A stretch of 64,000 nt of DNA from Alphaproteobacteria bacterium (GCA_041687435.1 JAWLBX010000007.1:33108-97107); one strand, 5' to 3'; shown: positions 15,714 to 38,601, counted from the first letter of the stretch. Program-made: numbers and translations. Notes: generated by a model not told the origin, from the sequence alone.

Positions 15714-15977
15714 TCAGTCCTCCGTCTCGATGCTGCGCAACAGAATAGCCTCCGCATTGGGATCAGTGATGTCGTCCGAGGTTTCGCACGTCAGGCGCGC
15801 CCCCTCTGCCAGCGTACCGGCGGCGGCTTGGTCGAAATGTTCCTGAAAATGCGCCGGCGACATGTGCGACATCGCACCCAGCCAGACCGAAACGCCGGTA
15901 ATGCGCCGGGCGTCAGCTTCTGCTGCGAGATCCGTGATCTTGTGCATCAGATCGCGCATCAACCCAGCTTCGTGCAT
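15714..15977 (-). CDS. hypA: HypA-like nickel metallochaperone lacking the zinc-finger domain
   Basis: 87 aa. It starts [14 protein letters not shown], where MHE is the Ni-binding N-terminus of HypA/HybF, and it ends ILLRSIETED like the HypA C-terminus. There is only one Cys and no CxxC pairs. The stop abuts the hypF start. Confidence 0.65.
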   Translation of the reverse strand: MHEAGLMRDLMHKITDLAAEADARRITGVSVWLGAMSHMSPAHFQEHFDQAAAGTLAEGARLTCETSDDITDPNAEAILLRSIETED

Positions 15978-16429
15978 GTGGCTTCTCCGATCATGTGCAT
16001 GATTTCTTGGACGAGGGTTTCTGCCGCTGCCTTAACCGGATGGGACAATGGCGCGCCGGCATCGAAGCTCTCGGCCTCGACGCCGTAGACCGTCAACGCC
16101 AGCGGCAGGCAATCGATTGCGCGTGCCAGTTCGATAGCAGCGCCCAGGCCGAATCCGTGGGTCGAAACGGCACCGAACACTTCGGGCAGAGCCGTGGTTG
16201 CGGCATTGAAACGGTGGATCGTGCCGGGTTCCGTGCCACTGGCGCAGGCATCGACAACAATCACCCGTTGCCACCCTTCCCAGGCGGGCAGCAACTCGGC
16301 GGGGTCGCCCTGCAAACAGAGCGTCCCGCCTCCCGGCAGATGTTCTTGCTCCAGGCAGGCGACGACGAACGGGCCGACACCATCATCGCCGCGTTCGGGG
16401 TTGCCGATACCGATGACGAGTGGCGTCAT
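15959..16429 (-). CDS. Hydrogenase maturation endopeptidase (HyaD/HoxW family)
   Basis: Contains [16 protein letters not shown] and VVDA...G motifs. 156 aa. ATGA overlap with the large-subunit stop. Confidence 0.9.
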
Positions 16430-17733
16430 GCAGCCCCCTTTTCATCGCGCTCCAGCGTCAACTGCAAAAAGTGAGTGGCGCACGAGATACAGGGGTCGTA
16501 GTTGCGAATGGTCTGTTCGCAGCGCTGGCGCAGTGCATCATCGGACAATGCCAGATTGGTCGCGATCACACCGCGCAGATCGTCCTCGATACTCGGCTGG
16601 TTCTGCGAGGTCGGCGGCACGATCTTGGCCTCGCGGATCAGCCCGTCGGCGCCTATGTCGTAGCGGTGATAAAGCAGCCCACGCGGCGCCTCGGTCGCCC
16701 AGCAGCCGCTGGCCTCGGATGGCATCACCTCGATCGCAGCAAGTTCCGGCGGCGCGTAGGCCTCGACCAGCCTTAGCGCCTCGCCAAAAGCGTAGAATAC
16801 CTCCACCAACCGCACCAGCAGGCTCTGATATGGGTTGCAGCAGACCGGGCCGAGACCCGCAGCCCTTGCCGCGGCCTGCACGTCCGCAGGCAGGCAATCG
16901 AAATTCAGGGCGTAGCGGGCGAGTGGGCCGACCAGATAGGCGCTGTCATCGGCAATCAGGTGCGAGTGGAGCGCGGTCGATTGCGGCTCATGGGATTCCG
17001 CGAAATGCTTTTCGTATGCATCGCCGGCAATATCGAGCCCGCGGGAAGAGACAATTCGGCCCGCGTTCATCGGGTATTCGTCCGCGGCGCGCAGGCTGAC
17101 GAACTGATAATCGCGCTCGAAATCCGGATAGTCGAGCCCTGCCGCCCATTGCAGCGCCTCCGCCGCGGCATCCCGGCTCCAGGCGATTTCATCGCGCAGC
17201 GCTGCTATCTCATCCCGCCTCGGCGTGCGGTAGAAGCCGCCGACCTTGACGTTGATCGGGTGAACCTCACGCCCGCCCACGGCGGCGATGATGGCGTTCC
17301 CTGCCTTTTTCATGCGCAGAGCCTGCTGCACCAACGGCGCGTTGGTCTTAGCCATCTCCACCACGCTGTCACAGCCGAGAAAATCCGGCGCATGCAGCAT
17401 AAAAACATGCAGCACGTGGCTCTGAATCCACTCGCCGCAATACAGCAGCCGGCGCAGGTCTCGCAGCGGTTGCGGCAGGCTGATGCCGCACGCAGCCTCC
17501 ATCGCATGAACAGCGCTCATTTGATAGGCGACCGGACAGATGCCGCAGATGCGCGCAGTTATATCAGGCGCTTCACGGAAGTCGCGGCCGCGCAGCAACG
17601 CTTCGAAATAGCGGGGCGGCTCGAAAATGTTGAGCTCGACATGCTCCACCTGACCGTTCGCTATGCGGGCGTGCAGCGCGCCTTCGCCTTCCACCCGGGC
17701 CAGATAATCGACCTTGATGGTGCGCTTGGTCAT
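16426..17733 (-). CDS. hyhL: [NiFe] hydrogenase large (alpha) subunit, group-3b-like
   Basis: N-terminal RICGICP and C-terminal DPCISCATH motifs, plus a 14-aa tail that would be the protease substrate. ATG 17733 ([18 protein letters not shown]) overlaps the small-subunit stop. The 534-aa version in the ORF track has a spurious extension. Confidence 0.9.
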
Positions 17734-25484: not shown

Positions 25485-26507
25485 ATGAAATCGCGTTTGA
25501 TATGGATCGTTGCCGCCCTGCTGTTGGCCGCCGGTGCCGGCTGGTGGTTCTGGTTTGACGCCAAACCGTCGGTTACCGTTGCCACCATAACCCGCGGCAC
25601 CGCAGCGGAAATCGTCTATGCCACCGGCGTGGTCGAGCCGGCGCATTGGGCCAAGGTGACCACCGTCGTCGCCGGCCGGATCGTCGAAAGCTGCAATTGC
25701 GAAGGGTTGGATGTTCGTAAGGGCGACCTGCTTTTCCGTCTCGACGATACGGAAATGCGGGCACGCGCCGATGAAATTCGCGCACGTCTGGAATTGGCGG
25801 AAAAGGAACTGGCCCGCACCAGCGACCTGTTCGAGCGCGGGGTCCACACGCGCGAACGCTACGATCAGGCATTTACGGAGGTCGCAAAATTGCGCGCTAA
25901 TCTTGCCGCGGTTGAGAGCCAGGCTATCGATCTGGCAATTCGTGCACCGCTCGACGGCCAGGTACTGCGGATCGAGGGTGAAGTCGGCGAAGTCGCAATC
26001 CTGGGCGAGGGTCTCGCCTGGGTGGGGCGGCCCAAGCCGCTTCTGGTGATTGCCGAGGTGAACGAGGAAGATGTGCCGCGTGTGGCCATCGGCCAACAGG
26101 CCCTGCTCAAAGCCGATGCCTTCCCCAGCCAAGCCCTGCCTGCAGTCGTATCTTCCATCACCCCGATGGGCGACCCCGAGTTGAAAACCTATCGCGTCCG
26201 CCTCGCCCTACCAGAGGATACGCCGGTGCTGATCAACATGACGGTCGACGTCAATATCATCATCCGCACGATGGATGATGCCGTTCTGGCCCCGGCGCCC
26301 GCACTAATTAACGGCGCGCTGCAGGTGCTAACCGATAGCGACCGGATCGAGCGGCGCGCGGTCGAAACCGGCATTGCCGGGGCCGCACAGGTGCAAATCG
26401 TCAACGGCGCCAACCCGGGCGAACGAGTCGTCTCCCCTGCCCTCGATAGCCTAGCAGATGGTGACCGGGTGCAGGTGCAACGGGGAGCGGAGCCCGCAAG
26501 CCCGTGA
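25485..26507 (+). CDS. Periplasmic adaptor (HlyD/MFP family) of an ABC exporter
   Basis: An N-terminal TM (IWIVAALLLAAGAGWWFWF) is followed by barrel-sandwich, coiled-coil and beta-barrel pattern. Confidence 0.85.
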   Translation: MKSRLIWIVAALLLAAGAGWWFWFDAKPSVTVATITRGTAAEIVYATGVVEPAHWAKVTTVVAGRIVESCNCEGLDVRKGDLLFRLDDTEMRARADEIRARLELAEKELARTSDLFERGVHTRERYDQAFTEVAKLRANLAAVESQAIDLAIRAPLDGQVLRIEGEVGEVAILGEGLAWVGRPKPLLVIAEVNEEDVPRVAIGQQALLKADAFPSQALPAVVSSITPMGDPELKTYRVRLALPEDTPVLINMTVDVNIIIRTMDDAVLAPAPALINGALQVLTDSDRIERRAVETGIAGAAQVQIVNGANPGERVVSPALDSLADGDRVQVQRGAEPASP

Positions 26508-27742
26508 ACCTGCTGCTGGAGATCGCATTCACCCATATTTTGGGCCGCGGCCGCCAAACCATCGTCTCCATAGCCGGTGTTACCCTTGGCGTCGGATTTG
26601 CGATTGCCATGGCTGCGCTGATGCAAGGCAGTCAGGAGGACTTTGTTGGCAAACTGATTGATGCCATGCCACACGTCCAGATTACCGATGAACGCCGGCA
26701 GTTGCAGGCGCAGCCGGCGGATGAACAGTTCGATGCAGTGGCATGGTATGGATTGCGCCCACGCGATGACGTGCGCGGCATCCTGAACCCGGTTGCCACC
26801 ATTGCCGCCCTGGAAGGCTGGGTTCCCGGCATCATTTCCGCCGGCCTGAATGTGCAGGGCGTTGCCCGGTATGGCGGCACAGAGCGGGGCGTCAGCATCA
26901 TCGGGATCGACCCGGCCGACGAGGTACGCGTTTCGACCATCGCCGAGGATATGACGTGGGGCAGTCTCCAAGACCTAAACGCCACCTCTTTTTCCGCTAT
27001 CATCGGTGAACGCCTTGCCGAACGCTTGTCGGTCGCCCCCGGTGACAGCATCCAACTGATTGCGGCGGGCGGTGTCACCCGGCGGTTGAAGGTGGTCGGC
27101 CTGTTCCGGACAGGTATTGTCGGCACCGACGAAACCCGGATCTATACCCGCCTGCGCACAGCTCAAATTTTGGCCGGGCGTTTCAACGCCATCAACGATA
27201 TCCGGATTCGCCTGAAAGACCCCGATGCCGCCGCCGCGGTCGCGCGGCGGGCAGAGGCGATGTTCGGGTACAAATCGGTATCGTGGCAAGAGGCAAACGA
27301 GAGCCTTCTGGAAGCGTTCGAAATCCGCAATATCATCATGTACACCGTTGTTGCCGCGATCCTTCTGGTTGCCGGTTTCGGAGTGTTCAACATCGTCTCT
27401 ATCATCACGCACGAGAAGGCGCGCGATATCGCAATTTTGAAATCGCTGGGGTTCCGCAAGGGTGATATCCAGCTGATTTTTGTAACCGAGGGTGCGCTGA
27501 TGGGCGGGTTCGGTGGCGTTTGTGGTATGGCTTTGGGCTATGGCCTTACGCGGATGCTGGGCTCTGTCACGTTCGAGATGCGCCAAATGTCAGAGGTCAG
27601 CACCTTGCCGGTGACCTATGATCTCCTGCATTACGCAGTTGCGGTTTCACTGGCATTATTTACGGCTGGAATCGCCGGATATCTGCCCGCCCGCAAGGCC
27701 GCAAAGGGCAACCCGATCGACATTATCCGCGGGGCATCATGA
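26504..27742 (+). CDS. FtsX/MacB-type ABC transporter permease (LolC/E, DevC-like)
   Basis: 412 aa. TM1 is followed by a large periplasmic domain and a C-terminal three-TM FtsX domain. The GTG start overlaps the adaptor stop (GTGA). Confidence 0.85.
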   Translation: MNLLLEIAFTHILGRGRQTIVSIAGVTLGVGFAIAMAALMQGSQEDFVGKLIDAMPHVQITDERRQLQAQPADEQFDAVAWYGLRPRDDVRGILNPVATIAALEGWVPGIISAGLNVQGVARYGGTERGVSIIGIDPADEVRVSTIAEDMTWGSLQDLNATSFSAIIGERLAERLSVAPGDSIQLIAAGGVTRRLKVVGLFRTGIVGTDETRIYTRLRTAQILAGRFNAINDIRIRLKDPDAAAAVARRAEAMFGYKSVSWQEANESLLEAFEIRNIIMYTVVAAILLVAGFGVFNIVSIITHEKARDIAILKSLGFRKGDIQLIFVTEGALMGGFGGVCGMALGYGLTRMLGSVTFEMRQMSEVSTLPVTYDLLHYAVAVSLALFTAGIAGYLPARKAAKGNPIDIIRGAS

Positions 27743-28455
27743 TGAGGGTCGGCCCGTCTGCCTCCCTGGTTTCGGCCCGGTCCGTCACCCGCATCCTTAC
27801 GGAAACGGTACCGGTGACGCTTGTGGAGGATGTGACCCTCGAAATCGGCCGCGGCGAGTTTGTGGCAATCACCGGCCCATCCGGTTCTGGCAAATCCTCC
27901 CTGCTCTATCTCCTGGGCTTGCTGGACGCACCGACCAGTGGCGAAGTTTTGTTTGAGGACCGCGCGACGTCGATCCTGACGGAGGAGGAACGGGCCGAAA
28001 TCCGCTTATCCGGCATCGGTTTCGTCTTTCAGTTTCATTTCCTGTTGCCCGAATTCACCATCCACGAGAACGTGCAGATCCCGATGCGGCGGCTGGCCCG
28101 CTGGTCAAGAGCCGAGGCGCGAGAGCGAGCTGCGCATCTGCTGGACCGGCTTGGGCTGGGCGATCACCTGCACAAACGCCCAGACCAAATTTCCGGCGGA
28201 CAGCGCCAACGCGTGGCGGTGGCCCGTGCGCTCGCCAACGATCCACCACTGATCCTGGCTGACGAGCCGACAGGTTCGCTCGATTCCGTTTCGTCCGATC
28301 AGGTTTTTCAAATCCTGTCTGACATTGTCGCGACTGGTGAAAAAAGCATCATCGCCGTCACCCATGACCTGGATATGGCAGCGCGAATGCACCGCGGCAT
28401 TCATTTGGTGGATGGGCGGATCGTCCGGGATGAGGCTCAGACCGCGCCCGATTAG
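27739..28455 (+). CDS. ABC transporter ATP-binding protein (LolD/MacB/DevA type)
   Basis: Walker [10 protein letters not shown], signature [14 protein letters not shown], Walker [17 protein letters not shown] overlap with the permease. Confidence 0.92.
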
Positions 28456-28665: not shown

Positions 28666-28812
28666 TCAGAGGTTCAGATAGCGGAATTCCGCCGTCGGTT
28701 CGAACGACAGTGCCAGAATGCCTAGAAACAGTGCTGCGTACCAAAGCGCGCATAGCGCAATTGCCAGGGGCCGCGGCAGATGTTCGGACAGCAGACCGAA
28801 GATATTGTACAT
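28666..28812 (-). CDS. 48-aa single-TM microprotein with C-terminal F-x-Y motif (DltX-like candidate)
   Basis: The sequence is MYNIFGLLSEHLPRPLAIALCALWYAALFLGILALSFEPTAEFRYLNL. Its ATG shares one nucleotide with the MBOAT stop (minus strand reads TGATG at 28814..28810). It falls below the size cutoff as a separate ORF and is visible only as the tail of track ORF 28666..29055. Confidence 0.55.
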   Translation of the reverse strand: MYNIFGLLSEHLPRPLAIALCALWYAALFLGILALSFEPTAEFRYLNL

Positions 28813-29972
28813 CACAGCCACCAATACACGAAGATCGTGCCGTAAACATCCAGTACATCTGGAAAAGTTGGCTCGCGGACGATAACAAAGCTGAGCCAGA
28901 CAAAATGTACGGTCAGAAGAATACAGAAAGCATCCCGGAATGGCCGTAGCACCGGGTTCCGGATGGCAATGCCGCGCCGGTCCTGGAAATTGTTCACGGC
29001 CGCCCAAATCATGGTCGCAACGCCGTGAACGGCACCCCAGACTAGATAACGCCAACTCAATTCGTGCCAGACGCCAATAAATACCATAGTGCCAAAAATC
29101 GCGGCATACTGGTTTCGGGACATTGCAAAAACCAGCGAGAACACATGCTCACGGGCAAAACTGGTCAGTGAAATATGCCAGTTGCGCCAGAATTCGGAGA
29201 TGTTCTTGGCGAGGTAAGGCCAGTTGAAATTCTCCATAACCCTGTAGCCCAGCAGCAGCGCAAAGCCAATGGCCACGTCGGAAAAGCCTGAAAACTGGAA
29301 ATAAAGATTCAGGCCACGGATGACCACATCCAGATAGGTGGCGAGCGCCGCATTGGTTTCGTGTAATGCCGCCACATGCGACGCCAACACTCCTTCGATC
29401 AGGTAATTGCCCAGGATCACGATCTTGGCGTAGCCATAGAGAATGCGCTGTAATCCGAGTGAAATATTGCTGGCATCCCAGCGCTTGTATTTCAAGTCGT
29501 TAAAGAACGCCGGAAAACGATGGATTGGCCCGACGACAATCGTTGGCAGAAAGAATTGATAAAGAAAGAAATCTTTAAGGCGATGCGTCTCTAGCGTACC
29601 CTTGTACCGGTCAATGATATAACTCAGGAAGCGGATGGCATAATATGCCATTCCCAAAGGCATGACGAAATCACGAACAACCCCGGGCTCCATATCCATG
29701 CTGGGCAACATTGCTTTGAAGCCGAGCAGTATTGCAATGACCAGTCCGCCCGCCGCCATGGCCCGCCATCCGGCCAACGGATTGGCATTGCACAAGAAAT
29801 AGACGGCTACGGTCAATCCGGTCAGCGACACGGCCGATATGGGCGAGTACAGCGCCAGAAAGCCCAGCGTGATGACGCCCAGAAACACGTCCCGCCACGC
29901 CTTGGGCAGGATCCAGTAGACCGAAACCACGCCAAACAACCAGCCCAGCCATTCCACGGACAGAAAATGCAC
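28812..29972 (-). CDS. MBOAT-family membrane O-acyltransferase (DltB/AlgI-like)
   Basis: 386 aa and polytopic. Contains FWRNWHISLTSFAREHVF and GVWHELSWRYLVWGAVHG, the MBOAT conserved-His regions. GTG start 29972 is preceded by GGAGGG. Confidence 0.9.
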   Translation of the reverse strand: MHFLSVEWLGWLFGVVSVYWILPKAWRDVFLGVITLGFLALYSPISAVSLTGLTVAVYFLCNANPLAGWRAMAAGGLVIAILLGFKAMLPSMDMEPGVVRDFVMPLGMAYYAIRFLSYIIDRYKGTLETHRLKDFFLYQFFLPTIVVGPIHRFPAFFNDLKYKRWDASNISLGLQRILYGYAKIVILGNYLIEGVLASHVAALHETNAALATYLDVVIRGLNLYFQFSGFSDVAIGFALLLGYRVMENFNWPYLAKNISEFWRNWHISLTSFAREHVFSLVFAMSRNQYAAIFGTMVFIGVWHELSWRYLVWGAVHGVATMIWAAVNNFQDRRGIAIRNPVLRPFRDAFCILLTVHFVWLSFVIVREPTFPDVLDVYGTIFVYWWL

Positions 29973-30038
29973 GCTATCCCTCCGTCCGCCATTCGCGTGG
30001 CAGGCTTGTTATCAAATGCCAGCGGCAGCTGACCGCCA

Positions 30039-30167
30039 TTAGATCGCCAAGCCCGGCAGGCTGATCCCCGCTAGCCACAGGCCGACGACCGCCACCCCAA
30101 CACCGCCTATCAGAAAGACGGTGAGGAACCATACGATCAGCGGTGGCGCCTGCGGTGGTTTCTTCAT
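30039..30167 (-). CDS. 42-aa single-TM microprotein between the adenylase-carrier and MBOAT genes
   Basis: I translated this by hand: MKKPPQAPPLIVWFLTVFLIGGVGVAVVGLWLAGISLPGLAI, ending in TAA. It is not in the ORF track because it is under 60 aa. The Shine-Dalgarno sequence is weak (GGA). Confidence 0.4.
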   Translation of the reverse strand: MKKPPQAPPLIVWFLTVFLIGGVGVAVVGLWLAGISLPGLAI

Positions 30168-30204
30168 CGCTGGTATTCCATCAATTTCGCCCATACAGAC
30201 AACA

Positions 30205-32064
30205 TCAGCCAGCCGGCTTCATCTTCCGCTCGACCAGATCGACAACATCACTGATTTTGCTGACATTCATGATCTCGCGTGGCCGCAGCTTGATGGAGAA
30301 ACGTTCTTCGACGGCGGTCAGAAACTCGATATGCGCCAGCGACGTCCAGCCCGATAAAGTATCGGGATTGGATTGCAGCGTGACAGTCTCCGCCGGACAT
30401 TTGAAAAACTCGGCGGCCACCTGCGCGACACCGCTCAGAATATCCGAATTGTCGTTTGCCTGCGCGGAACTGGCATGAGCGTTCCGGAGTTCTTCCCGCA
30501 CCGCCTCGATCAAAACCTTGCCGGCCGGGCCGCGTGGCAGTTCGGTCATAAAATGGACGGTTCCGGGAATTTTCTCCCGCGCCAACCGCTCTGCACAGTG
30601 CGCGGCCACGTCGGCGACCGTGAGTGAGGGACCGTCAGGCACCTCTAGGCAACACGCAAGGCGCTCGCCCCAGATTGGGTCTGGCATGCCAAAGGTCACG
30701 GCATCCTGCACGCCGGGGATGGTGCGCAGGACGGACGTTACATCTTCCGGATAGACGTTGATGCCGCCGACAATGATGACATTCTTCTTGCGCCCGACGA
30801 TCCGGTAGAAGCCGTCTTCGTCTAACGACGCCAGATCGCCGGTGTGGAACCAACCGTTTTTCAGCACCTCCGCCGTTTCCACCGGGGCGCGGAAATAGCC
30901 GCGCATGACATGGGCGCCGCGCAGAACCAACTCGCCAACACTGCCTTGCGCAATGTCGTTGCCCTCATCATCGACAATGCGGGCCTCGCAGTCGATTGGC
31001 TTGCCGACGGTGCCGATCTTCCGGGTTTCCGGCGTTGGCCCACAATACAGCGCCTCGCAAACCGTTTCCGTCAGGCCATAAACGTTGACGACCTGCACGC
31101 CGTAGCCGTTTTCGATCCGCTCCCAAATGGCGGGGTCGAGGAAGGCTGCGGTCGAGATGATGAATTTGAAATCACCCGTGCGCAGGCAACCCCCGCACTC
31201 ATCGACCAGATTCCCCATCAGGCCGAGAATGGTCGGCACCGTGATAAAATGGGTAATTTCCAGCGTGTAGATGCTGCGAAGGACCGGCTCCAGCGTATCG
31301 ACACGCAACGGCTGCGGTCTGTGCAATGTAGCACCGGCACAGAATGCCAGCACCGCGCCGTGGGTCAGACCGTCCGTGTGGTGCATCGGCAACAGGTTGA
31401 GCAAGTTTACCTTCTCATCGAAACCGTAGTGCCGCACGAAGGTCTGTTCCTGAGCGAACAAATTCTTGTGCGTGATCTCGACACCTTTCGGCCGCGATGT
31501 CGTGCCGGAGGTGAACAGGATATATGCCAGCGCATCGTCGGTCAGGTCGCCAGGCAACTGCCCCTCTTCCAAACCGGAAAGGCATGCGGGGTAGGTCTCC
31601 GCCGCCGGGGCGCTTTGACGGCGGAAAAGACGTCCGATCCCCGCCTTGCTTTGCGTTTCCGTAGTGCCGCCATCGATGCGAACCGCCACATTCGGTGCAC
31701 CATCCGACTGATCCAGCGCATGCCGGGACAGGTAGGATGCATCCGCGAACAGCCCCTGTGCATCGGACGCACGCATCAGCGATTCGGCTTCCGATAACGG
31801 CGCGTGCGGGTCCAATACGATGGTGGTTAAGCCGAGGCGCAGGAACGACAGAAAGAGCATGATCAGCGAGCGATCATCCTCCGTGATCACAATCACTCTG
31901 TCGCCAGCCTTCAGGCCCAAATTGGAACACAGGGTCGCCGTTTTCCGCACGCCGGCGAAAAGCTCAGCATAGGCCAGTGGCCGCGGGCCCGCCAGCAGGG
32001 GCTTGCGGCGTGGCGTGGCCTGCTCAAGCCGCTCGAACGCGGCAATCCAAGGAGAAAGAGCCAT
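30205..32064 (-). CDS. Adenylate-forming ligase fused to a C-terminal acyl/aminoacyl carrier domain (DltA-DltC-like fusion)
   Basis: Adenylation core motifs: LFTSGTTSRPKG (A3), YGLTE (A5), GELVLRG (A6), WFHTGDLA (A7), GRKKNVIIVGGINVYPEDV (A8) and PRGPAGKV (A10). The C-terminal ~80 aa form a carrier domain with LSGWTSLAHIEFLTAVEERF, where Ser is at the phosphopantetheine position. Confidence 0.9.
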   Translation of the reverse strand: MALSPWIAAFERLEQATPRRKPLLAGPRPLAYAELFAGVRKTATLCSNLGLKAGDRVIVITEDDRSLIMLFLSFLRLGLTTIVLDPHAPLSEAESLMRASDAQGLFADASYLSRHALDQSDGAPNVAVRIDGGTTETQSKAGIGRLFRRQSAPAAETYPACLSGLEEGQLPGDLTDDALAYILFTSGTTSRPKGVEITHKNLFAQEQTFVRHYGFDEKVNLLNLLPMHHTDGLTHGAVLAFCAGATLHRPQPLRVDTLEPVLRSIYTLEITHFITVPTILGLMGNLVDECGGCLRTGDFKFIISTAAFLDPAIWERIENGYGVQVVNVYGLTETVCEALYCGPTPETRKIGTVGKPIDCEARIVDDEGNDIAQGSVGELVLRGAHVMRGYFRAPVETAEVLKNGWFHTGDLASLDEDGFYRIVGRKKNVIIVGGINVYPEDVTSVLRTIPGVQDAVTFGMPDPIWGERLACCLEVPDGPSLTVADVAAHCAERLAREKIPGTVHFMTELPRGPAGKVLIEAVREELRNAHASSAQANDNSDILSGVAQVAAEFFKCPAETVTLQSNPDTLSGWTSLAHIEFLTAVEERFSIKLRPREIMNVSKISDVVDLVERKMKPAG

Positions 32065-32088
32065 GGTGATTGCGTCGCCTTTATTGGA

Positions 32089-33180
32089 TTAGCCACAAGC
32101 GGCGCCGAACTTCGACCCGTTGCTCTCGATCACATCGGCAAGCCGGTCGCCGATGGCGGCGCCATAGGCAGCAGCGCCTTCAGGGGCAAAATGGTTGGAG
32201 TCGGCGAAGTAGGATGGTTTCGGCAGGATCAACTCCCACCACCGGATGACCGGAGTTTGATAGGTCTGACCGAACTCGGTCAACGCGGCATCGAAGCGCT
32301 GACGGGTATCGATGAGTCCTTCATACGACATGTAGGGCATGAAAAAGACATCGGTTTTTGCAGCCTCTTCAAACAAACGCGGGTCCAGTCCATCCCGCAG
32401 CCAGCCGGGGATGGACATGACGACCGGCAGGGCGCCCGCACCGATCACAACATCCCGCATCGCAGTCAGTTCGGCCGTATAGTCAGCGGTCAGGTCATAG
32501 CGACTGGCATCCAGCTTTCCGGCATTCGAATGGGCAGCGCGTTGCCGGCGAATGACCTCTGCATTCATTTCCAACTTGGCCCAAAAGCGGGAAACTTCCG
32601 CCAGCATTGACGGGGAATAGTGCGGGTCTCGGTGCAAGTTTGCGGCAATCGCCAAGTCGTCCAGCCGCGCGTTGAACCCGCCCGCCCATACAACGACAAG
32701 ATCGGGTTCAGTCTTCGCGACGTTGTGCTCGAAATAGGTGGTGGTTTGCGGCAGGCTGAACCCGGGAACGCCGGCGTTTAAAAAATCGAAACGGCAGTTC
32801 GGCAGGCGGTCCCTGGCGGCCGACATGGCCTGCGCCACCCAGGTCTCGCTATCGTCGGTTACGTAAGGATCCAGCGTGCTGGAGGTGCCAATAAACGCCA
32901 CCCGGATGCGCCCGGGCGGCTTGGGCATGTCCAATTCCTCACCCCGGAATCCTAAGCTGTTGAATTGCAACTTCCCAAAAGCCGCATTTGGCCGGGGAAT
33001 GCGCAAGTCGGTTTCCGGATCGATGAAAAAGGTCTCGGACTTTTCCACATCGGCCTGACCGCCGAATTGTCGCCATTGCTGCAGGAACAGTGCGACCTCA
33101 CCGGCAAGAACCCAGCCAAAAGCCAGAGCGGCAATGACCAGACCAGTCAGAATTTCCTTTTGCCGCAGGGTTAAAATCAA
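32089..33180 (-). CDS. Membrane-anchored SGNH/GDSL-type hydrolase/acyltransferase (DltD/AlgJ/PatB-like role)
   Basis: N-terminal TM (LTGLVIAALAFGWVLAGEVALFL). SGNH block I is VAFIGTSST, block III-like is LNAGVPG, and block V is FADSNHF (DxxH). TTG start at 33180. Confidence 0.75.
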   Translation of the reverse strand: MILTLRQKEILTGLVIAALAFGWVLAGEVALFLQQWRQFGGQADVEKSETFFIDPETDLRIPRPNAAFGKLQFNSLGFRGEELDMPKPPGRIRVAFIGTSSTLDPYVTDDSETWVAQAMSAARDRLPNCRFDFLNAGVPGFSLPQTTTYFEHNVAKTEPDLVVVWAGGFNARLDDLAIAANLHRDPHYSPSMLAEVSRFWAKLEMNAEVIRRQRAAHSNAGKLDASRYDLTADYTAELTAMRDVVIGAGALPVVMSIPGWLRDGLDPRLFEEAAKTDVFFMPYMSYEGLIDTRQRFDAALTEFGQTYQTPVIRWWELILPKPSYFADSNHFAPEGAAAYGAAIGDRLADVIESNGSKFGAACG

Positions 33181-33479
33181 CGCTCTTTCCCCAATTTCGA
33201 ACGAATTTTCGTTAAGGGACTATTCATAATCGAACGCCTGTTTGCGAGCCCGGCTTCATCGGGACGTGCCAGACGCCGACACTGGCGGTGACCGGATACA
33301 ATCCTGAACTAACCTAAAAACTTTACATTTTCCGACCAAAACGCGCAAGCTGCTGAACTTGCTACCGGAAGCCGCGATCTCTCGGAATGGGCACGGCAAG
33401 CCGGAGCGCGTCCGATCGGGCGCTGAAGCGCGGACCCGCTTCGGGTATTTGCCGAGCGAGGCAGCGATTTGATAGAGGA

Positions 33480-33650
33480 ATCGAGGTGCAAAAAATAATT
33501 AAGGCAAATTATTGCTTTTTCCAATTTATACTTTGAATATTTATATTACTATTACAGATTATGAACAAAAAAAACTCTATTACTACAAATAAAATTCCGT
33601 TTTATCCTAAAATTCCCGTTGATATTTGCGACGCCGCAGTGATCGATCGT
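33480..33650. promoter_or_regulatory. Extremely AT-rich divergent control region between the Dlt-like operon and the NRPS-like operon
   Basis: This is the most AT-rich stretch in the window. It contains direct repeats TAAAATTCC (33590-33598 and 33608-33616) and TATTACTA (33544-33551 and 33578-33585). Confidence 0.5.
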
Positions 33651-33717
33651 CTTGCGCCCCCGCTCAAAAGGATGCACTAAAAGCCATGAACAAGCTTTCT
33701 GCCGGGAGACTGACAAA

Positions 33718-35526
33718 ATGTTGAATTCGGCTTCGACATTTTGCGCATGGATGGAACGCCACGCGACCGAACACCCGGATAGGGTAGCAATCGCGTCACT
33801 CGATCAACCGCCGCTTACTTATCGTGAGCTTTTCGCTGCTGCACAAGATTTACGCAAAGAGTTGCTGGCTGCGGGCGTGGGTGCGGATCAGCGTGTTGCG
33901 CTGGTCGTTCCTGATGGCGTGCAAATGCTGTATGGCATGATCGCAGTTGGCGCCACGACCCAGACTATTCTGACACCTGCCACCATGGCAGAAAATGAAT
34001 TTGCGGAGTTGTTACGGCGCGCATCCTGCGACTTGGCCATTATTCACGAAGCCTCACCAGAGAATTTCCGCCGTGCGGCGGCCAATTGCGGAACCCCGAT
34101 CTGGACCGTGCGTCACGCGCCGGATGCGCCGGCGGGACTTTGGCGCATTGTGGATGCCGAAAAGGCCCGTTCTGGCGCGCCGCCGCGAATCCCGGATGTC
34201 GATGACGTCGCCATCATCCTGAGTTCGTCCGGCACCACCGGGCAGGCGAAGATCGTGCCCCGTACCCATCGCAATGTCTGTCACTTTAGCGACGCAATCA
34301 TCAAGGACCTCAACCTAACGCCGGACGATATTACCATCATTGCCACCCCCAACCATCTGAGCATGGGAAGCCAGGCTACAGGGCTGTTGAGCCTGCGTAT
34401 GGGCGGGCTGGTGGTCTGCAACGATGGACCTTACGAACCAGCGAACTATCTGGCCCTATTTGAACGCTACAAACCCACCTTCATAACGGCCAGCCCCGTC
34501 TATTTCCGCAGCATCCTGGCAACCATCGACGCCAAGACGCCGCCCGTCGACGTTTCCTCAGTGCGGGCAATCCGAGCCAGTTCCGACCTGATGCCCGACG
34601 ACATCCGGCATGCGCTCGAGCAGAAATTCGGTGTCTCGGTCGACTCCAGCTATTCCTCCAGCGAGGCTTTGAGCATCGCAGTGCGCACCAGCGCCGATAA
34701 CGACCGCCCGCCAACCTATCTGGGCCGCATCACATCGGGTTCTGTCCGCATTCTGGACGATAATGGAAACCAGGTGCCCCAGGGCGAGGTGGGCGAAATT
34801 GCCGTTTCAGACCCCGCGGTGTCACCCTACTATATCGATGATGAGGAACTGACCGCTCGCGCCTTCAAGGATGGCTGCTATCGCATGGGCGATCTGGGCT
34901 TTATCGATGCCGAGGGCGGATTGCACTTCGTCAGCCGCAAGGCCGACATCATCAACCGCGGAGGCTACAAGATCGCGCCGAGCGAGGTGGAGCGCGCGCT
35001 GAGCGATCACCCAGCGATCGCGCAGTGCAGCGTTTTCGGAGTACCGCACCGCCGCCTGGGCGAGGATATCGCCGTGGCGGTCGTGCCGAAGCTGGGCCAG
35101 ACGCTAGACGAGGCGATGATGCGGCAACATCTGGCAAGCCGGCTTGGTCCCGGCAAGTGGCCGCGGCGCCTGTTTTTGGTCGACGACCTACCTCGCAATA
35201 CCGTCGGCAAGGTTTTGCGGCGCGAATTGACGGCAAGGTTTTGCGGCGAGGCTGCCCAAGAGGCTGCCAGCACTGGCCCGGCCGCCTGGACCTCGCCCGA
35301 AGTCTCCTTGGTTATTGGCCTGTGGTCCTACATTTTGGAGGTTCCCACAGTCGGCGCAGATACCAGTTTCATCGAGGCCGGCGGCGATTCACTCCAGGCC
35401 GGCATTCTTCAGGCAGAAACATCGGCATGGTTCGATTTGAAGCTGGAGCCGGACTTCATTCTTTCGCCAGACTGCACACCGCGCGCGATTGCCGAGCGGC
35501 TGCAGGCGAGCAACGCATCTGCTTGA
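33718..35526 (+). CDS. NRPS-like adenylation-thiolation (A-T) didomain protein
   Basis: Adenylation motifs: ILSSSGTTGQAKIV (A3), YRMGDLG (A7), SRKADIINRGGYKIAPSEVE (A8) and PRNTVGKVLR (A10). The C-terminal PCP has FIEAGGDSLQAG. ATG 33718 (MLNSASTF) follows GGGAGA. Confidence 0.9.
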   Translation: MLNSASTFCAWMERHATEHPDRVAIASLDQPPLTYRELFAAAQDLRKELLAAGVGADQRVALVVPDGVQMLYGMIAVGATTQTILTPATMAENEFAELLRRASCDLAIIHEASPENFRRAAANCGTPIWTVRHAPDAPAGLWRIVDAEKARSGAPPRIPDVDDVAIILSSSGTTGQAKIVPRTHRNVCHFSDAIIKDLNLTPDDITIIATPNHLSMGSQATGLLSLRMGGLVVCNDGPYEPANYLALFERYKPTFITASPVYFRSILATIDAKTPPVDVSSVRAIRASSDLMPDDIRHALEQKFGVSVDSSYSSSEALSIAVRTSADNDRPPTYLGRITSGSVRILDDNGNQVPQGEVGEIAVSDPAVSPYYIDDEELTARAFKDGCYRMGDLGFIDAEGGLHFVSRKADIINRGGYKIAPSEVERALSDHPAIAQCSVFGVPHRRLGEDIAVAVVPKLGQTLDEAMMRQHLASRLGPGKWPRRLFLVDDLPRNTVGKVLRRELTARFCGEAAQEAASTGPAAWTSPEVSLVIGLWSYILEVPTVGADTSFIEAGGDSLQAGILQAETSAWFDLKLEPDFILSPDCTPRAIAERLQASNASA

Positions 35527-35663
35527 GTTTGATCAACAAGGCCCCCGTTCTGGTATAGTAGACTACCGTTGGATTTCCGTGCTGGCGTTTGATTGCGCCG
35601 GCTAATCTCGACGATAGCGCGATCCCAAGCGCCCGCTTTGCAACCGAAAATACAGGTACGAAG

Positions 35664-37199
35664 ATGGCCGCCTCAACCAATGATAATATCCGCTGGCCCG
35701 ACCCGATTACCGCGGCCGTTGTCCACCTGTTCGCCTTCCTGCTGGAAAAGCCTGTGCCCAAGCCCGATGAAAGTTTTTCGGCGCTGGGCGGCGATGCGGC
35801 CTTGGCCGAGCGGCTGCGGCAGGCAATTGCCGGCTCGTTCAGGGTAAGCTTGCAGGAGCACGCGCTGGCTGACCTGACATTCACCCCCGCAACAATCGCC
35901 GGCGAAATCATGGCGGCGAAAGCGGTAGAAACGGAACAGTCCGGCCCCACGGTCGCCCGCACTCGGGACTGGCTGCCCGCCCTGCCCTCGCAAGCCGGCC
36001 TTTATTCCGTCGATCGCGTGACCCGCGGCGAGGCTCGGCCGACCGTTACCGGCGCCCTGATCGTAGAAGGCAACTTCGACCGCGTCCGGCTGGACGCTGC
36101 GGTTCAGCAGGCGATGATGCGTCACGACGGCCTGCGCCTGCGCTTTGAAACCCAGGACCGGCAAGTCATGATCCGGCCAGAAAAAGACGCGCCCGGTATC
36201 GAGGATTTCAGCGCATCCGCAAACTCGGAAGCCGACCTGATCCGTGCAGCCGCTAGCCATGCGGCCGAAACGCTGGACCTGGATCAGGGGCGCGGCGTCC
36301 GCTGGCTGCTGTGCGAGCAGGGCAGCGGACAACAAGCCCTTATCGTCGTGGCTCACCACGCCGTCGCCGACGCCATGTCGAAATCGTTTCTGTTACGCGA
36401 GGTTGGCGAGACTTATGCAGCGGGCGGCTCACTCAACAGCATGCCGCTTGCCCCATCCTTCATGGCCATCGCGGCGGAACGGGCTGCCATGCTGGCCAGC
36501 CCCAAGGCGGCACAGGACGAGGCCTATTGGCGGCAATACCTGAACCCGCTGCCAGGCGATCTGGCCGTTCCAGGTATGATCGAGGAAAGCGAGGGCGCGG
36601 AGTTTGAGCGCCGGGTGATTGCCTTTGATTTGGACACAGCGGCCGTCGAACGGTTGGTTGCAAATGCGGCAGCGCAATCAGCCACGCCCTTTATTGCCTT
36701 CGCCCGCGTCATGGCCCGCTGCTTTGCGGCAGAGCGGGATGGCGTTGTCTCCGTCCCGATCAGCAACCGCGACCAGCCAGGCCGGCAGAATGCCATTGGC
36801 TGCCTGATGCAGACCGTGCCCCTGCGCCTGTCCGGCCGGGACGGCGCACCCTACCCGCGGCTGCGGGAGGAGGTGTCGCAAATGCTTTCCCACTCCGCGC
36901 TGTCCGTGGAGGAATTGCTAACCCGTGGCGTCCTCGCCCGCAAAGGCCTGTTCGAGGCGCCGATTGGTGTGCAGTTCCAGCTGCGCCGCGCGGAATCTGA
37001 AGTGATTGTCGACCGGGCGGACCTGCGCCTGCGGCGGGTCGATCCGGTTCTGGGGATCAATAACCTGCTGCCATTGTCCATCGATATCAAACGCGGCGAA
37101 ACCACCACAATGTTCTGCGATTACGACCCCGGGCTGGTTGACCCGTCCGGGCTCGACTCCATGATTGCAGCTGTCAACGCAGAGCTTTCCAAGGCTTAG
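35664..37199 (+). CDS. Condensation-domain protein with N-terminal degenerate carrier-like domain
   Basis: The N-terminus is PCP-like (FSALGGDAALAERLRQAI...TPATIAGEIM) but has Ala (codon 35796-35798) where the phosphopantetheinyl Ser belongs. A C domain with HHAVADAMS (HHxxxD) follows. Confidence 0.85.
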   Translation: MAASTNDNIRWPDPITAAVVHLFAFLLEKPVPKPDESFSALGGDAALAERLRQAIAGSFRVSLQEHALADLTFTPATIAGEIMAAKAVETEQSGPTVARTRDWLPALPSQAGLYSVDRVTRGEARPTVTGALIVEGNFDRVRLDAAVQQAMMRHDGLRLRFETQDRQVMIRPEKDAPGIEDFSASANSEADLIRAAASHAAETLDLDQGRGVRWLLCEQGSGQQALIVVAHHAVADAMSKSFLLREVGETYAAGGSLNSMPLAPSFMAIAAERAAMLASPKAAQDEAYWRQYLNPLPGDLAVPGMIEESEGAEFERRVIAFDLDTAAVERLVANAAAQSATPFIAFARVMARCFAAERDGVVSVPISNRDQPGRQNAIGCLMQTVPLRLSGRDGAPYPRLREEVSQMLSHSALSVEELLTRGVLARKGLFEAPIGVQFQLRRAESEVIVDRADLRLRRVDPVLGINNLLPLSIDIKRGETTTMFCDYDPGLVDPSGLDSMIAAVNAELSKA

Positions 37200-37338
37200 A
37201 ACCCTACCGCAACAGTTGCACAAACGCCGGTGCGCCTCTCACAGCAAGACGAGGCATTCTGTCTGCCTTTCGGGAAAATACTGGACAGACCGGGTACAGA
37301 CGCGGTCGAATAGAGGACCTCCTGCTTCCGGGGCCCCT

Positions 37339-38601
37339 ATGAAACCGCAAATTCTATCGACATTGCCGCACTATACGCGTGCAACGTTCCTGTCTGACCT
37401 GATTGCCGGCCTGACGGTTGCCATGGTCGCGCTGCCGCTCAGTCTCGCCATCGCCATCGCCTCCGGCGCCGATCCGGCCAAGGGTTTGGTCACGGCCATT
37501 GTTGCCGGCTTTCTCATATCCCTGCTTGGCGGCAGCCGGGTGCAGATCGGCGGACCAACCGGCGCCTTTATCGTCGTCGTTTTCGGAGTCATCGCCCAGC
37601 ACGGGTATGACGGGCTGGTCATGGCGACTTTCATGGCTGGTATCATCTTGGTGATCGCCGGTTACATCCGTGCCGGTGCCTTGATCCAATTCGTGCCCGA
37701 AGCGGTGATCAATGGCTTCACGATCGGTATCGCCGTCATAATCGCCACCAGCCAGCTGAAGGATTTCTTTGGCTTGAGCATGGCTTCAGTACCGGCGGAT
37801 TTCCTGGAGAAGGTGCCTGCGCTTTGGTCCGCCGGCGCGACGCTGAGCCTGCCAGCGCTCGGCATAGGCCTCACGACAATGGTGGCGATCGTGGCGCTGC
37901 GGCGGATGTTTCCGCGCTTTCCGGGCCTGATCGTTGCAGTCGCCGCCACCTCCGGAGCAGCGGTCCTGCTAAGCTTGCCGGTGGATACGATCTTTTCGCG
38001 CTTTGGCGCGCTGCCGGATACGCTGCCGATGCCCGCACTGCCGGATATCAGCGTCGAACGGTTCGTCGAGCTGCTGCCATCCGCCTTCATCATCGCATTC
38101 CTGGCAGGTGTCGAATCCCTGCTTTCCGCCATGGTCGCGGACCGGATGATCGAACATACCCACCGCCCGAACGCGGAGGTGCTGGCTCAAGGCTATGCCA
38201 ACATCGCTTCCGCCCTGTTCGGCGGCTTGCCGGCAACCGGTGCCATTGCGCGCACAGCCACGAACGTGCGGGCGGGCGGAAAAACGCCGGTTGCGGGACT
38301 GATCCATGCCCTGGTCGTGCTGGTGGTGATGCTGGTAGCCGCCGACCTGGCTGGCTATCTTGCCCTTCCTGCATTGGCCGGGCTGCTGATGCTGACTGCC
38401 TGGAACATGAGCGAACCGCACAAATGGCGCAGTTATATGCGGGCTCGCCCCTCTGACCGGATGCTGCTGATCCTGACCCTGGTGCTGACAGTTGTCGCCG
38501 ATCTGACGGTCGCCATCGGCGTCGGGGTTGCCGTCGGCCTCGCGATACGCCTGCGCCGCCGCCATGTGCCGCCAGCCGACTGGAGGACCCCGGACCGATA
38601 G
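37339..38601 (+). CDS. SulP-family anion transporter, short form without a STAS domain
   Basis: SulP core is present (FLSDLIAGLTVAMVALPLSLAIAIASG..., GGSRVQIGGPTGAF). The protein is ~420 aa from ATG 37339 and ends directly after the last TM (RLRRRHVPPADWRTPDR). Confidence 0.85.
   Translation: MKPQILSTLPHYTRATFLSDLIAGLTVAMVALPLSLAIAIASGADPAKGLVTAIVAGFLISLLGGSRVQIGGPTGAFIVVVFGVIAQHGYDGLVMATFMAGIILVIAGYIRAGALIQFVPEAVINGFTIGIAVIIATSQLKDFFGLSMASVPADFLEKVPALWSAGATLSLPALGIGLTTMVAIVALRRMFPRFPGLIVAVAATSGAAVLLSLPVDTIFSRFGALPDTLPMPALPDISVERFVELLPSAFIIAFLAGVESLLSAMVADRMIEHTHRPNAEVLAQGYANIASALFGGLPATGAIARTATNVRAGGKTPVAGLIHALVVLVVMLVAADLAGYLALPALAGLLMLTAWNMSEPHKWRSYMRARPSDRMLLILTLVLTVVADLTVAIGVGVAVGLAIRLRRRHVPPADWRTPDR

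Follow-up and report, generated by a model that had tools for sequence, protein, structure and literature searches.

A Dlt-like, carrier-protein-dependent acyl relay predicted from a five-gene MBOAT/SGNH operon of diderm bacteria

Two kinds of pathways that combine a membrane-bound O-acyltransferase (MBOAT) with an SGNH-fold protein have been distinguished: the Dlt kind, which relies on a carrier protein and the small peptide DltX and is deemed Gram-positive, and all others, which use acyl-CoA and bear a shuttle motif fused to the MBOAT (PMC12148441). The second kind includes PatA/PatB, AlgI/AlgJ/AlgX and WssH/WssI of diderm bacteria, where an MBOAT is joined by a periplasmic SGNH protein and an acyl-tyrosine shuttle motif. 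In these acyl-CoA-dependent MBOATs the tyrosine motif is carried on two extra C-terminal helices, and the non-Dlt pathways contain neither a carrier protein nor a DltX-like microprotein (PMC12148441). It has been demonstrated experimentally for both Dlt and PatA that the tyrosine of the FxYxxF motif carries the acyl intermediate (PMC12148441). DltX of L. plantarum is 49 aa long and ends with FIYNEF (PMC13653941). Here we describe a stretch of 64,000 nt from an Alphaproteobacteria bacterium (GCA_041687435.1 JAWLBX010000007.1:33108-97107), referred to below as the window, in which a five-gene cassette at positions 28666-33180 probably specifies a Dlt-type relay that moves acyl groups from a carrier protein across the membrane and is adapted to diderms.

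An earlier note, made from the sequence of the window alone, had reported five co-directional minus-strand genes in this region. Open reading frame (ORF) calling recovered all five, tightly packed, together with every motif that the note had quoted. In the order of transcription they are:

32089..33180, minus strand: SGNH-fold protein of the c6 type, 363 aa, a presumed periplasmic acyltransferase (ORF)
30205..32064, minus strand: A-PCP, a didomain protein with an adenylation domain (ANL superfamily) and a phosphopantetheine carrier domain, 619 aa (ORF, Pfam)
30039..30167, minus strand: mic1, a single-pass membrane peptide of 42 aa (ORF, conserved in the two closest relatives, L081 and L082)
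28812..29972, minus strand: DltB-like MBOAT, 386 aa (ORF, Pfam, profile search of the PDB, AlphaFold2 model)
28666..28812, minus strand: mic2, a DltX-like membrane peptide of 48 aa, the presumed acyl shuttle (ORF, family hidden Markov model)

These genes constitute a real operon. The SGNH and A-PCP genes are separated by 24 nt, the A-PCP and 42-aa genes by approximately 37 nt, and a further 66 nt precede the GTG start codon of the MBOAT gene, which is located 5 nt downstream of a Shine-Dalgarno sequence (GGAGGG). The MBOAT and 48-aa genes overlap, the stop codon of the former sharing bases with the ATG of the latter (GTGATG), and an alternative upstream ATG at 30194 would extend the 42-aa product to 51 aa. 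The same five genes are found in the closest relatives of the window, L081 (91% MBOAT identity) and L082 (79% SGNH identity), the latter being a metagenome-assembled genome of Alphaproteobacteria. Both micro-ORFs are annotated as genes in L081, mic1 is conserved in L082, and both are real genes. The wider family was collected by scanning species-representative genomes, which yielded 80 loci; L081, L082 and L085, the last of which is an ENA contig, are counted apart from these.

The 48-aa peptide terminates in FRYLNL, with the tyrosine at position 45. A homology search seeded with this peptide retrieved only two near-identical metagenomic matches, and the evidence that it belongs to a family comes from our own ORF and hidden Markov model (HMM) analysis of the 80 loci, 76 of which contain a homologue of about 45 aa. 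The corresponding gene is situated directly 3' of the MBOAT gene in 72 of 75 cases and ends 121-190 nt past the MBOAT stop codon. A tyrosine occupies position -4 in 75 of the 76 homologues, the exception being a truncated copy in a degraded locus; position -6 is phenylalanine in 68 and leucine or isoleucine in seven more, and about 72 end with a hydrophobic residue. The motif thus matches the FxYxxF of DltX, in agreement with the earlier description of the 48-aa product as an X-like, tyrosine-bearing transmembrane (TM) microprotein. Lysine and arginine residues are more abundant on the N-terminal than on the C-terminal side of the helix (2.84 vs 1.01 on average; N side richer in 67 of the 76), a distribution that indicates an N-in, C-out topology. 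Comparison of the 48-aa genes of the window and L081 revealed 16 synonymous and 6 non-synonymous codon changes, with 22 of 29 base differences at third codon positions; judging from this synonymous excess and third-position bias, the gene is translated and under purifying selection. Neither of the two peptides of the operon matched any Pfam family (E-values up to 10) or NCBIfam model (E-values up to 0.01), and no DltX model was hit. Based on its C-terminal motif, the 48-aa peptide is presumed to be a DltX-like acyl shuttle.

The product of the preceding gene had been assigned to the MBOAT family on the strength of its FWRNWHISL and VWHEL motifs, and the assignment is well founded (Pfam MBOAT, 1.3e-18). 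W302-H303-E304 and W265-H266 are invariant among 24 sequences, and His303 is the presumed catalytic histidine. When a profile built from 24 family members was compared with the PDB, the only sequence matches were DltB chains (8jem and 6bug, E about 1e-44, profile positions 29-363 of 383). The AlphaFold2 model of the protein (pLDDT 88) likewise had DltB as its best Foldseek match, with TM-scores of 0.78/0.73, ahead of PORCN and HHAT. The protein scored 139.5 bits with the DltB equivalog model of NCBIfam (LTA_dltB, TIGR04091), below the cut-off of 375, and therefore is a relative of DltB rather than its orthologue. Its own C-terminus (28812-28832, minus strand) reads FVYWWL and fits the pattern F-x-Y-x-x-hydrophobic. 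A fused shuttle motif was considered for this segment and rejected, since tyrosine at -4 is not conserved in the 80 family members and the resemblance is probably due to chance. An exact-sequence look-up returned no record for the MBOAT of the window. More than 1,000 relatives of it were obtained at E <= 1e-10. Of the 120 listed, most have 380-387 aa (range 361-396), and most share 40-60% identity with it, a few being closer. In the plasmid collection only distant MBOATs were found, with less than 37% identity.

The 619-aa A-PCP protein had been described as an adenylating enzyme fused to a carrier domain, and both parts are recognized by Pfam: the former by AMP-binding (1.5e-62) and AMP-binding_C (4e-11), the latter by PP-binding at residues 546-611 (1.5e-5; 25.6 bits, above the cut-off of 20.8). 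Its landmarks are the P-loop (T185-G194), the A10 lysine (K516) and the carrier serine (S575, within GWTS). In an alignment of 59 family members and the window protein, the core motifs A3, A5, A7, A8 and A10 as well as S575 are at least 95% conserved, and the same holds for Asp231-Gly232 at the acyl-pocket position. By contrast with the DltA-like ligase that the earlier note had envisaged, the A domain is nearest to acyl-CoA synthetases. In both NCBIfam and the PDB it was matched best by fatty-acyl-, malonyl- and oxalyl-CoA synthetases, MenE and FadD13. DltA models were not among the 25 best NCBIfam matches, the 25th of which scored 187 bits (DltA cut-off, 559.85). The A4 region, LPMHHTDGL, aligns with LPLFHVHGL of the oxalyl-CoA synthetase AtAAE3 and is not of the FDxS form; its PMHHTDG segment is CoA-ligase-like, whereas the nonribosomal peptide synthetase (NRPS)-type ligases of related loci read FDYG there. 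Because the A domain resembles acyl-CoA synthetases and not DltA, D-alanine is an unlikely cargo.

The alignment with AtAAE3 also bears on what the cargo might be. In that enzyme, His214 gates the pantetheine tunnel, while the oxalate pocket is formed by Val215-His216, Cys288-Ser289, Ala313-Met314 and His319, of which Ser289 and His319 bind oxalate (PMC8905533). His229 of A-PCP aligns with the gate residue His214, and the positions of His216, Ser289 and His319 are taken by Asp231, Ala306 and Glu337, respectively. Since an acidic residue replaces the pocket histidine and both oxalate-binding residues are lost, these changes argue against a dicarboxylate cargo and hint at a neutral or amine-bearing acid. 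An equivalence of Asp231 with the alpha-amino-binding aspartate of NRPS enzymes (Asp235 of PheA) was rejected: relative to the FDYG-type ligases Asp231 is placed one residue later, and it appears to correspond to His216 of AtAAE3 only.

The 363-aa protein had been predicted to be a membrane-anchored SGNH protein with one N-terminal TM helix and a Ser/Asp/His triad. We located the TM core at approximately residues 14-32, block I as FIGTSST, with the first serine at position 100, and block V as D327-S-N-H330. The triad S100/D327/H330 is present and, along with G98 and N135, invariant in an alignment of 55 homologues. The Pfam match to Lipase_GDSL_2 was sub-threshold (24.5 bits; cut-off, 32.9). 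Nevertheless, the SGNH fold is confirmed by structure prediction, as the AlphaFold2 model (pLDDT 93; N-terminal helix, residues 5-39) matched dozens of SGNH/GDSL esterases at a Foldseek probability of 1.0. The nearest structures are generic esterases and the natural-product enzyme CgnD; TesA is also among the neighbours, as is the solved YbbAP-TesA complex, in which a MacB-like pump is associated with an SGNH esterase. The protein does not belong to the DltD family: no DltD Pfam family was retrieved with it even at E-values up to 10. A crude positive-inside count around the TM helix weakly favours a periplasmic location of the SGNH domain (3.65 vs 2.86 K/R, 30 of 51 sequences).

An SGNH-like TM-anchored protein is encoded in 72 of the 80 loci and comes in two types, neither of which matches the DltD model. 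The type of the window, c6 (about 366 aa), is found in 29 loci and the other, c5 (about 311 aa), in 43; the two were never found together. The c5 gene is usually located between the A-PCP and MBOAT genes. The types are homologous (hhalign probability 96%, E = 4.9e-9), with their GxS and DxxH blocks aligned. Proteins of the c5 type start with the motif APPLxVW, which is followed by a TM helix. Two tandem c5-type paralogues lie between A-PCP and MBOAT in L058 (6212-7974) and L080 (5422-7219), and another MBOAT gene, more distantly related, is present in L058 at 15712-17073.

The 42-aa peptide (KKPPQAPPLIVWFLTVFLIGG...) carries the motif APPLIVW followed by a TM helix, that is, the same motif as the N-termini of c5 proteins. 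The earlier note had counted this microprotein among the parts of a Dlt machine; it is without a Dlt counterpart and instead matches a detached c5-type N-terminal anchor. Positions 5-35 of the c5 HMM align to the mic1 peptides, and among long ORFs the mic1 HMM matches c5 N-termini only. Small ORFs occupy the gap between A-PCP and MBOAT in 21 loci, 20 of which are of the c6 type and none of the c5 type. The 42-aa peptide is therefore best read, from these sequence matches, as the c5 anchor helix, which would have persisted as a separate subunit when the c5 protein gave way to one of the c6 type. Because the anchor would have been retained when c6 is used, we infer that the helix is itself functional in the membrane complex, where it would probably dock to the MBOAT.

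The cassette had been regarded as a feature of one alphaproteobacterium; it proved to be a multi-phylum family represented in 80 species-level genomes. Among the Alphaproteobacteria it is found in Azospirillum soli, Alsobacter, Oceaniradius, Roseitalea, Limibaculum, Donghicola, Novosphingobium and others, and among the Gamma- and Betaproteobacteria in Sedimenticola, Woeseiaceae, Porticoccus, Paraglaciecola and Nitrosomonas. Bacteroidota are represented by Chryseolinea, Cytophaga aurantiaca and Saprospiraceae. Further hosts are Desulfobulbaceae and Bdellovibrionales (Deltaproteobacteria), Nitrospina, Waddliaceae (Chlamydiota) and Planctomycetota. Besides Azospirillum soli and Cytophaga aurantiaca, the hosts known in culture include Alsobacter ponti, Oceaniradius stylonematis, Sedimenticola selenatireducens, Chryseolinea serpens and Magnetospira sp. 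QH-2. The cassette is thus kept across at least seven phyla, and all hosts are diderm. A close A-PCP homologue (phmmer, E < 1e-90) is present in 59 of the 80 loci, mostly upstream of the MBOAT gene and co-directional with it. Some other loci have more distant ANL-carrier fusions or separate ligases, and an ANL gene of any kind is found in 71.

Two loci deserve separate mention. In L085 (55% MBOAT identity) an IS21 element interrupts the A-PCP gene, and two phage-type integrases as well as further insertion sequence copies border the cassette, which resides within a polysaccharide cluster coding for GT2, a Wzx-like flippase, a methyltransferase and sulfotransferases. This locus is evidence for mobility and for a link to glycans. 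The cassette of L049 (680-4185) looks degraded, in that the MBOAT gene is fragmented and has a gap of about 900 nt, the SGNH sequence is distributed over two reading frames, and the last residues of the shuttle peptide are missing. It is either a pseudogenised copy or the product of long-read sequencing errors.

As to how the products would work together, the earlier note had suggested a Dlt-like, carrier-dependent MBOAT/SGNH acylation operon, and the DltB-like MBOAT, the tyrosine-motif peptide and the conserved carrier serine all speak for it. In the relay that we consider likely, the ANL-type A domain would activate a carboxylic acid and thioesterify it onto the phosphopantetheine arm at Ser575 of its own carrier. 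The loaded carrier would then dock on the MBOAT from the cytoplasmic side. With His303 as the catalyst, the MBOAT would pass the acyl group through its own body and onto Tyr45 of the 48-aa peptide, whose C-terminal tail (FRYLNL) would lie in the periplasm. The acyl-tyrosine tail would swing into the SGNH active site and acylate Ser100, with His330 and Asp327 completing the triad, and in the last step the SGNH protein would acylate a hydroxyl group or an amine of a periplasmic or envelope acceptor. The 42-aa peptide would probably supply an MBOAT-docking helix, and divergently transcribed genes for an adenylation-thiolation (A-T) protein and a condensation (C) protein would probably elaborate the cargo or build the acceptor. 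All of these steps are derived from sequence, homology and conservation, and the relay draws support from presumed catalytic residues that are invariant across the family in all domains. The proposal of a complete DltXABCD parts list stands as regards mechanism and architecture; it does not extend to orthology of the A domain or the SGNH protein, nor to the 42-aa peptide, which is no Dlt part. Several observations weigh against such a relay. The Pfam and NCBIfam models for DltX, DltD, DltA and DltC miss the corresponding parts, and neither DltD nor PatB is among the best 50 Foldseek matches of the SGNH model. The periplasmic location of the SGNH domain is argued from one N-terminal TM helix and from analogy. 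Furthermore, this protein may be a hydrolase, as its best structural neighbours are generic esterases and CgnD.

The region upstream of the operon and the genes diverging from it comprise the following features:

33181..33651, no strand assigned: intergenic region between the divergent operons, AT-rich (GC about 0.50) and presumed to hold the promoters of both (composition)
33652..35526, plus strand: A-PCP2, a second adenylation-carrier didomain protein with a GGDSL carrier motif, probable partner (Pfam AMP-binding, AMP-binding_C, PP-binding)
35589..37199, plus strand: NRPS condensation-domain protein, probable partner (Pfam Condensation, 4e-35)
37165..38601, plus strand: SulP-family anion transporter, membership in the system uncertain (Pfam Sulfate_transp, 8e-79)

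The higher AT content relative to the flanks, on which the earlier note had remarked, applies to the MBOAT and peptide genes (GC 0.53-0.56) and to the divergent intergenic region (0.50-0.53); the A-PCP and SGNH genes, at about 0.60, hardly differ from the flanks (0.60-0.65). A promoter and terminator scan of 5.5 kb gave counts not above shuffled expectation; this includes the five sigma-70-like sites, three of which fall within 33181..33651. An Rfam scan of the operon and leader regions detected no riboswitch or other regulator, the sole match being far sub-threshold and within a coding region.

The true start of A-PCP2 is probably about 22 codons past the ORF start. The condensation protein has a carrier-like N-terminal segment (35664-36020, plus strand; FSALGGDAALAERL) that reads GGDA, with alanine in place of the phosphopantetheine-attachment serine, and matches PP-binding with 14.6 bits (E = 0.039). 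This segment is probably a degenerate, inactive carrier domain. L081 shares the divergent A-PCP2, condensation protein and SulP transporter; the transporter, which scored 372 bits with the DauA-like NCBIfam model (cut-off, 614), is found in none of the 80 genome loci. Genes for A-T plus C proteins, or for a fused A-T-C protein, adjoin the cassette in L004, L007 and L077, and the NRPS-like A-T plus C module probably belongs to the cassette system. Converging on the other end of the cassette are genes for an HlyD-like adaptor, a MacB-type FtsX permease and an ABC ATPase (25485-28455, plus strand). This arrangement is common to the window and L081 and is absent from L082 and the 80 genome loci; the exporter was rejected as a part of the system, being conserved in the closest relative only.

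Other loci have different partners. In L082 the divergent module consists instead of a ligase, a pyridoxal phosphate (PLP)-dependent decarboxylase, an acyl carrier protein (ACP) and a sulfotransferase; the ligase scored 340 bits with TIGR03098 (cut-off, 592) and the decarboxylase 361 bits with TIGR03099 (cut-off, 478). A second ANL gene is present in 39 of the 80 loci, usually directly upstream. In nine of these (L012, L038, L043, L052, L061, L063, L072, L073 and L080) the gene upstream of A-PCP codes for an ANL protein of 930-990 aa, the N-terminal extension of which (about 430-480 aa) had no Pfam match in the two proteins scanned, those of L012 and L052; it represents an uncharacterised domain that accompanies the cassette. 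A separate NRPS-type ligase is encoded in L010, L014, L016 and L082 (5161-6684). The two inspected, from L016 and L082, have an FDYG A4 motif and resemble TIGR03098. The separate ligase replaces the fused A-PCP in L016, and apparently also in L010 and L014; in L082 it is found beside an 81-aa stand-alone ACP, alongside the fused A-PCP. The split arrangement of ligase and carrier in these loci is more Dlt-like. A sulfotransferase gene (PF13469/PF00685) occurs in 17 of the 80 loci, sometimes within the operon, and additionally in L082 (6681-7628) and L085 (10359-11270). It is positioned between A-PCP and MBOAT in L005, L013, L017, L020 and L035, and 3' of MBOAT in L006, L008, L009, L028, L029, L044, L047, L050 and L053. 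The window has no sulfotransferase, but it does have the SulP-family transporter. Given the recurrence of sulfotransferases, the cargo or the acceptor might be sulfated. The combination of a constant core with variable accessory chemistry suggests that the cargo or acceptor is elaborated differently among lineages.

The same neighbourhood could be taken to belong to a small-molecule or lipid pathway, in which the ANL enzymes and the C domain would build an acyl or N-acyl product, the MBOAT would transfer it to a lipid or release it, and the SGNH protein would be a hydrolase or thioesterase like TesA. An NRPS-like A-T plus C module adjoins the cassette here as well as in L081, L004, L007 and L077, two ANL genes are present in 39 of the 80 loci, and TesA and CgnD are among the structural neighbours of the SGNH protein; moreover, the cassette of the window is located outside any polysaccharide gene cluster and next to a MacB-type exporter. 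However, a peptide with a near-invariant C-terminal tyrosine (75 of 76) and an anchored SGNH protein are hallmarks of a relay and would be needless for release in the cytoplasm. The partner modules vary by locus, whereas the core of A-PCP, MBOAT, peptide and SGNH protein is constant; the cassette of L085 does lie within a polysaccharide cluster (GT2, Wzx, sulfotransferase), and the MacB exporter is not conserved beyond L081. We thus consider a small-molecule or lipid pathway rather improbable.

Two further explanations appear very unlikely to us, and to the same extent. One is that the operon is an orthologous dlt/dra-type system for D-alanylation of an envelope component, as reported in some Gram-negatives. 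The set of parts is that of DltXABCD, and the only solved homologue of the MBOAT is DltB, but the best matches of the A domain are acyl-CoA synthetases, with DltA models outside the best 25, and the A4 region is CoA-ligase-like (PMHHTDG vs FDYG in NRPS-type ligases); the MBOAT does not reach the DltB equivalog cut-off (139.5 vs 375 bits), and no DltD family match was obtained. The other is that an ordinary AlgI/PatA-like pair for acetyl-CoA-dependent O-acetylation happens to stand beside unrelated genes, the micro-ORFs being meaningless. Several database sources do label homologues of the MBOAT 'alginate O-acetyltransferase AlgI'; yet A-PCP is adjacent across phyla (a close homologue in 59 of the 80 loci, an ANL gene in 71), the MBOAT is without the fused C-terminal tyrosine motif typical of acyl-CoA-dependent MBOATs, and the micro-ORFs are conserved and appear to be under purifying selection.

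A carrier-dependent relay of the Dlt type thus seems the most suitable description of the cassette, the family of which is widespread in Gram-negatives and apparently unstudied. No description of it, or of Gram-negative versions, was found in the searchable literature, nor was any characterised system with this architecture and a known substrate; Schultz et al. 2023, reportedly the key bioinformatic reference on shuttle motifs, may have catalogued it. What appears to be new is a Dlt-type relay that uses another class of ligase and other SGNH modules, includes an additional anchor peptide and occurs in diderms. Being carrier- and microprotein-dependent, diderm, and equipped with a ligase not meant for D-alanine, the cassette would break the division into two kinds of MBOAT-SGNH pathways and therefore points to an envelope modification of an undescribed sort. 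Whether the cassette installs a non-acetyl, non-D-alanyl substituent on a periplasmic or outer-envelope molecule, passing it from carrier to DltB-like MBOAT to acyl-tyrosine microprotein, is in our judgement an evenly balanced matter. Such a substituent may be composite (amine-bearing, N-acylated or sulfated) and assembled with the help of the second ANL enzyme, the C domain, the PLP decarboxylase or the sulfotransferase. If the proposal is correct, the Dlt mechanism would no longer be peculiar to Gram-positives; it would represent a single branch of a wider carrier-dependent relay in which SGNH modules are interchangeable and an anchor peptide has been split off. The family would evolve by module swapping, in which SGNH types are exchanged and the TM anchor of one of them survives as the free 42-aa peptide. 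Acylation of envelope polymers controls resistance to antimicrobial peptides, phage adsorption, biofilm properties and host recognition.

Among known systems, the trio of ligase, ACP and PLP decarboxylase associated with exosortase A (TIGR03098, TIGR03099) resembles the divergent module of L082, albeit with scores below the cut-offs; the window differs in having an A-T plus C module, and no exosortase was seen. Carrier-dependent aminoacylation of an envelope component in diderms is known from AlmEFG, which attaches glycine to lipid A in Vibrio cholerae, and from the dlt-related dra locus of Bordetella. AlmG is an LpxL-type acyltransferase and falls outside the MBOAT/SGNH relay, and the dra locus uses DltA- and DltC-type proteins. 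Unlike in these systems, the ligase of the cassette is an ANL enzyme similar to CoA synthetases and is fused to its carrier. With PatA, AlgI and WssH the cassette shares the diderm setting, the pairing of an MBOAT with an SGNH protein and the acyl-tyrosine shuttle motif; those pathways use acetyl-CoA, however, whereas the cassette has a carrier and bears the motif on a separate peptide. The likeness to DltXABCD, which attaches D-alanine to teichoic acids in Firmicutes, includes a presumed carrier-protein thioester as the acyl donor and a short DltB-like MBOAT to which no shuttle helices are fused. It also includes a single-pass peptide encoded on its own, about 48 aa in length and ending in F-x-Y-x-x-hydrophobic, and a TM-anchored, presumed final transferase with an SGNH fold and a Ser/Asp/His triad. 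The cassette departs from it in its acyl-CoA-synthetase-like ligase with a fused carrier (DltC is a discrete carrier), in an SGNH protein that is not of the DltD family, in the extra 42-aa TM peptide and in gene order. Its hosts are diderms without teichoic acid, and a second ANL or NRPS-like module usually accompanies it.

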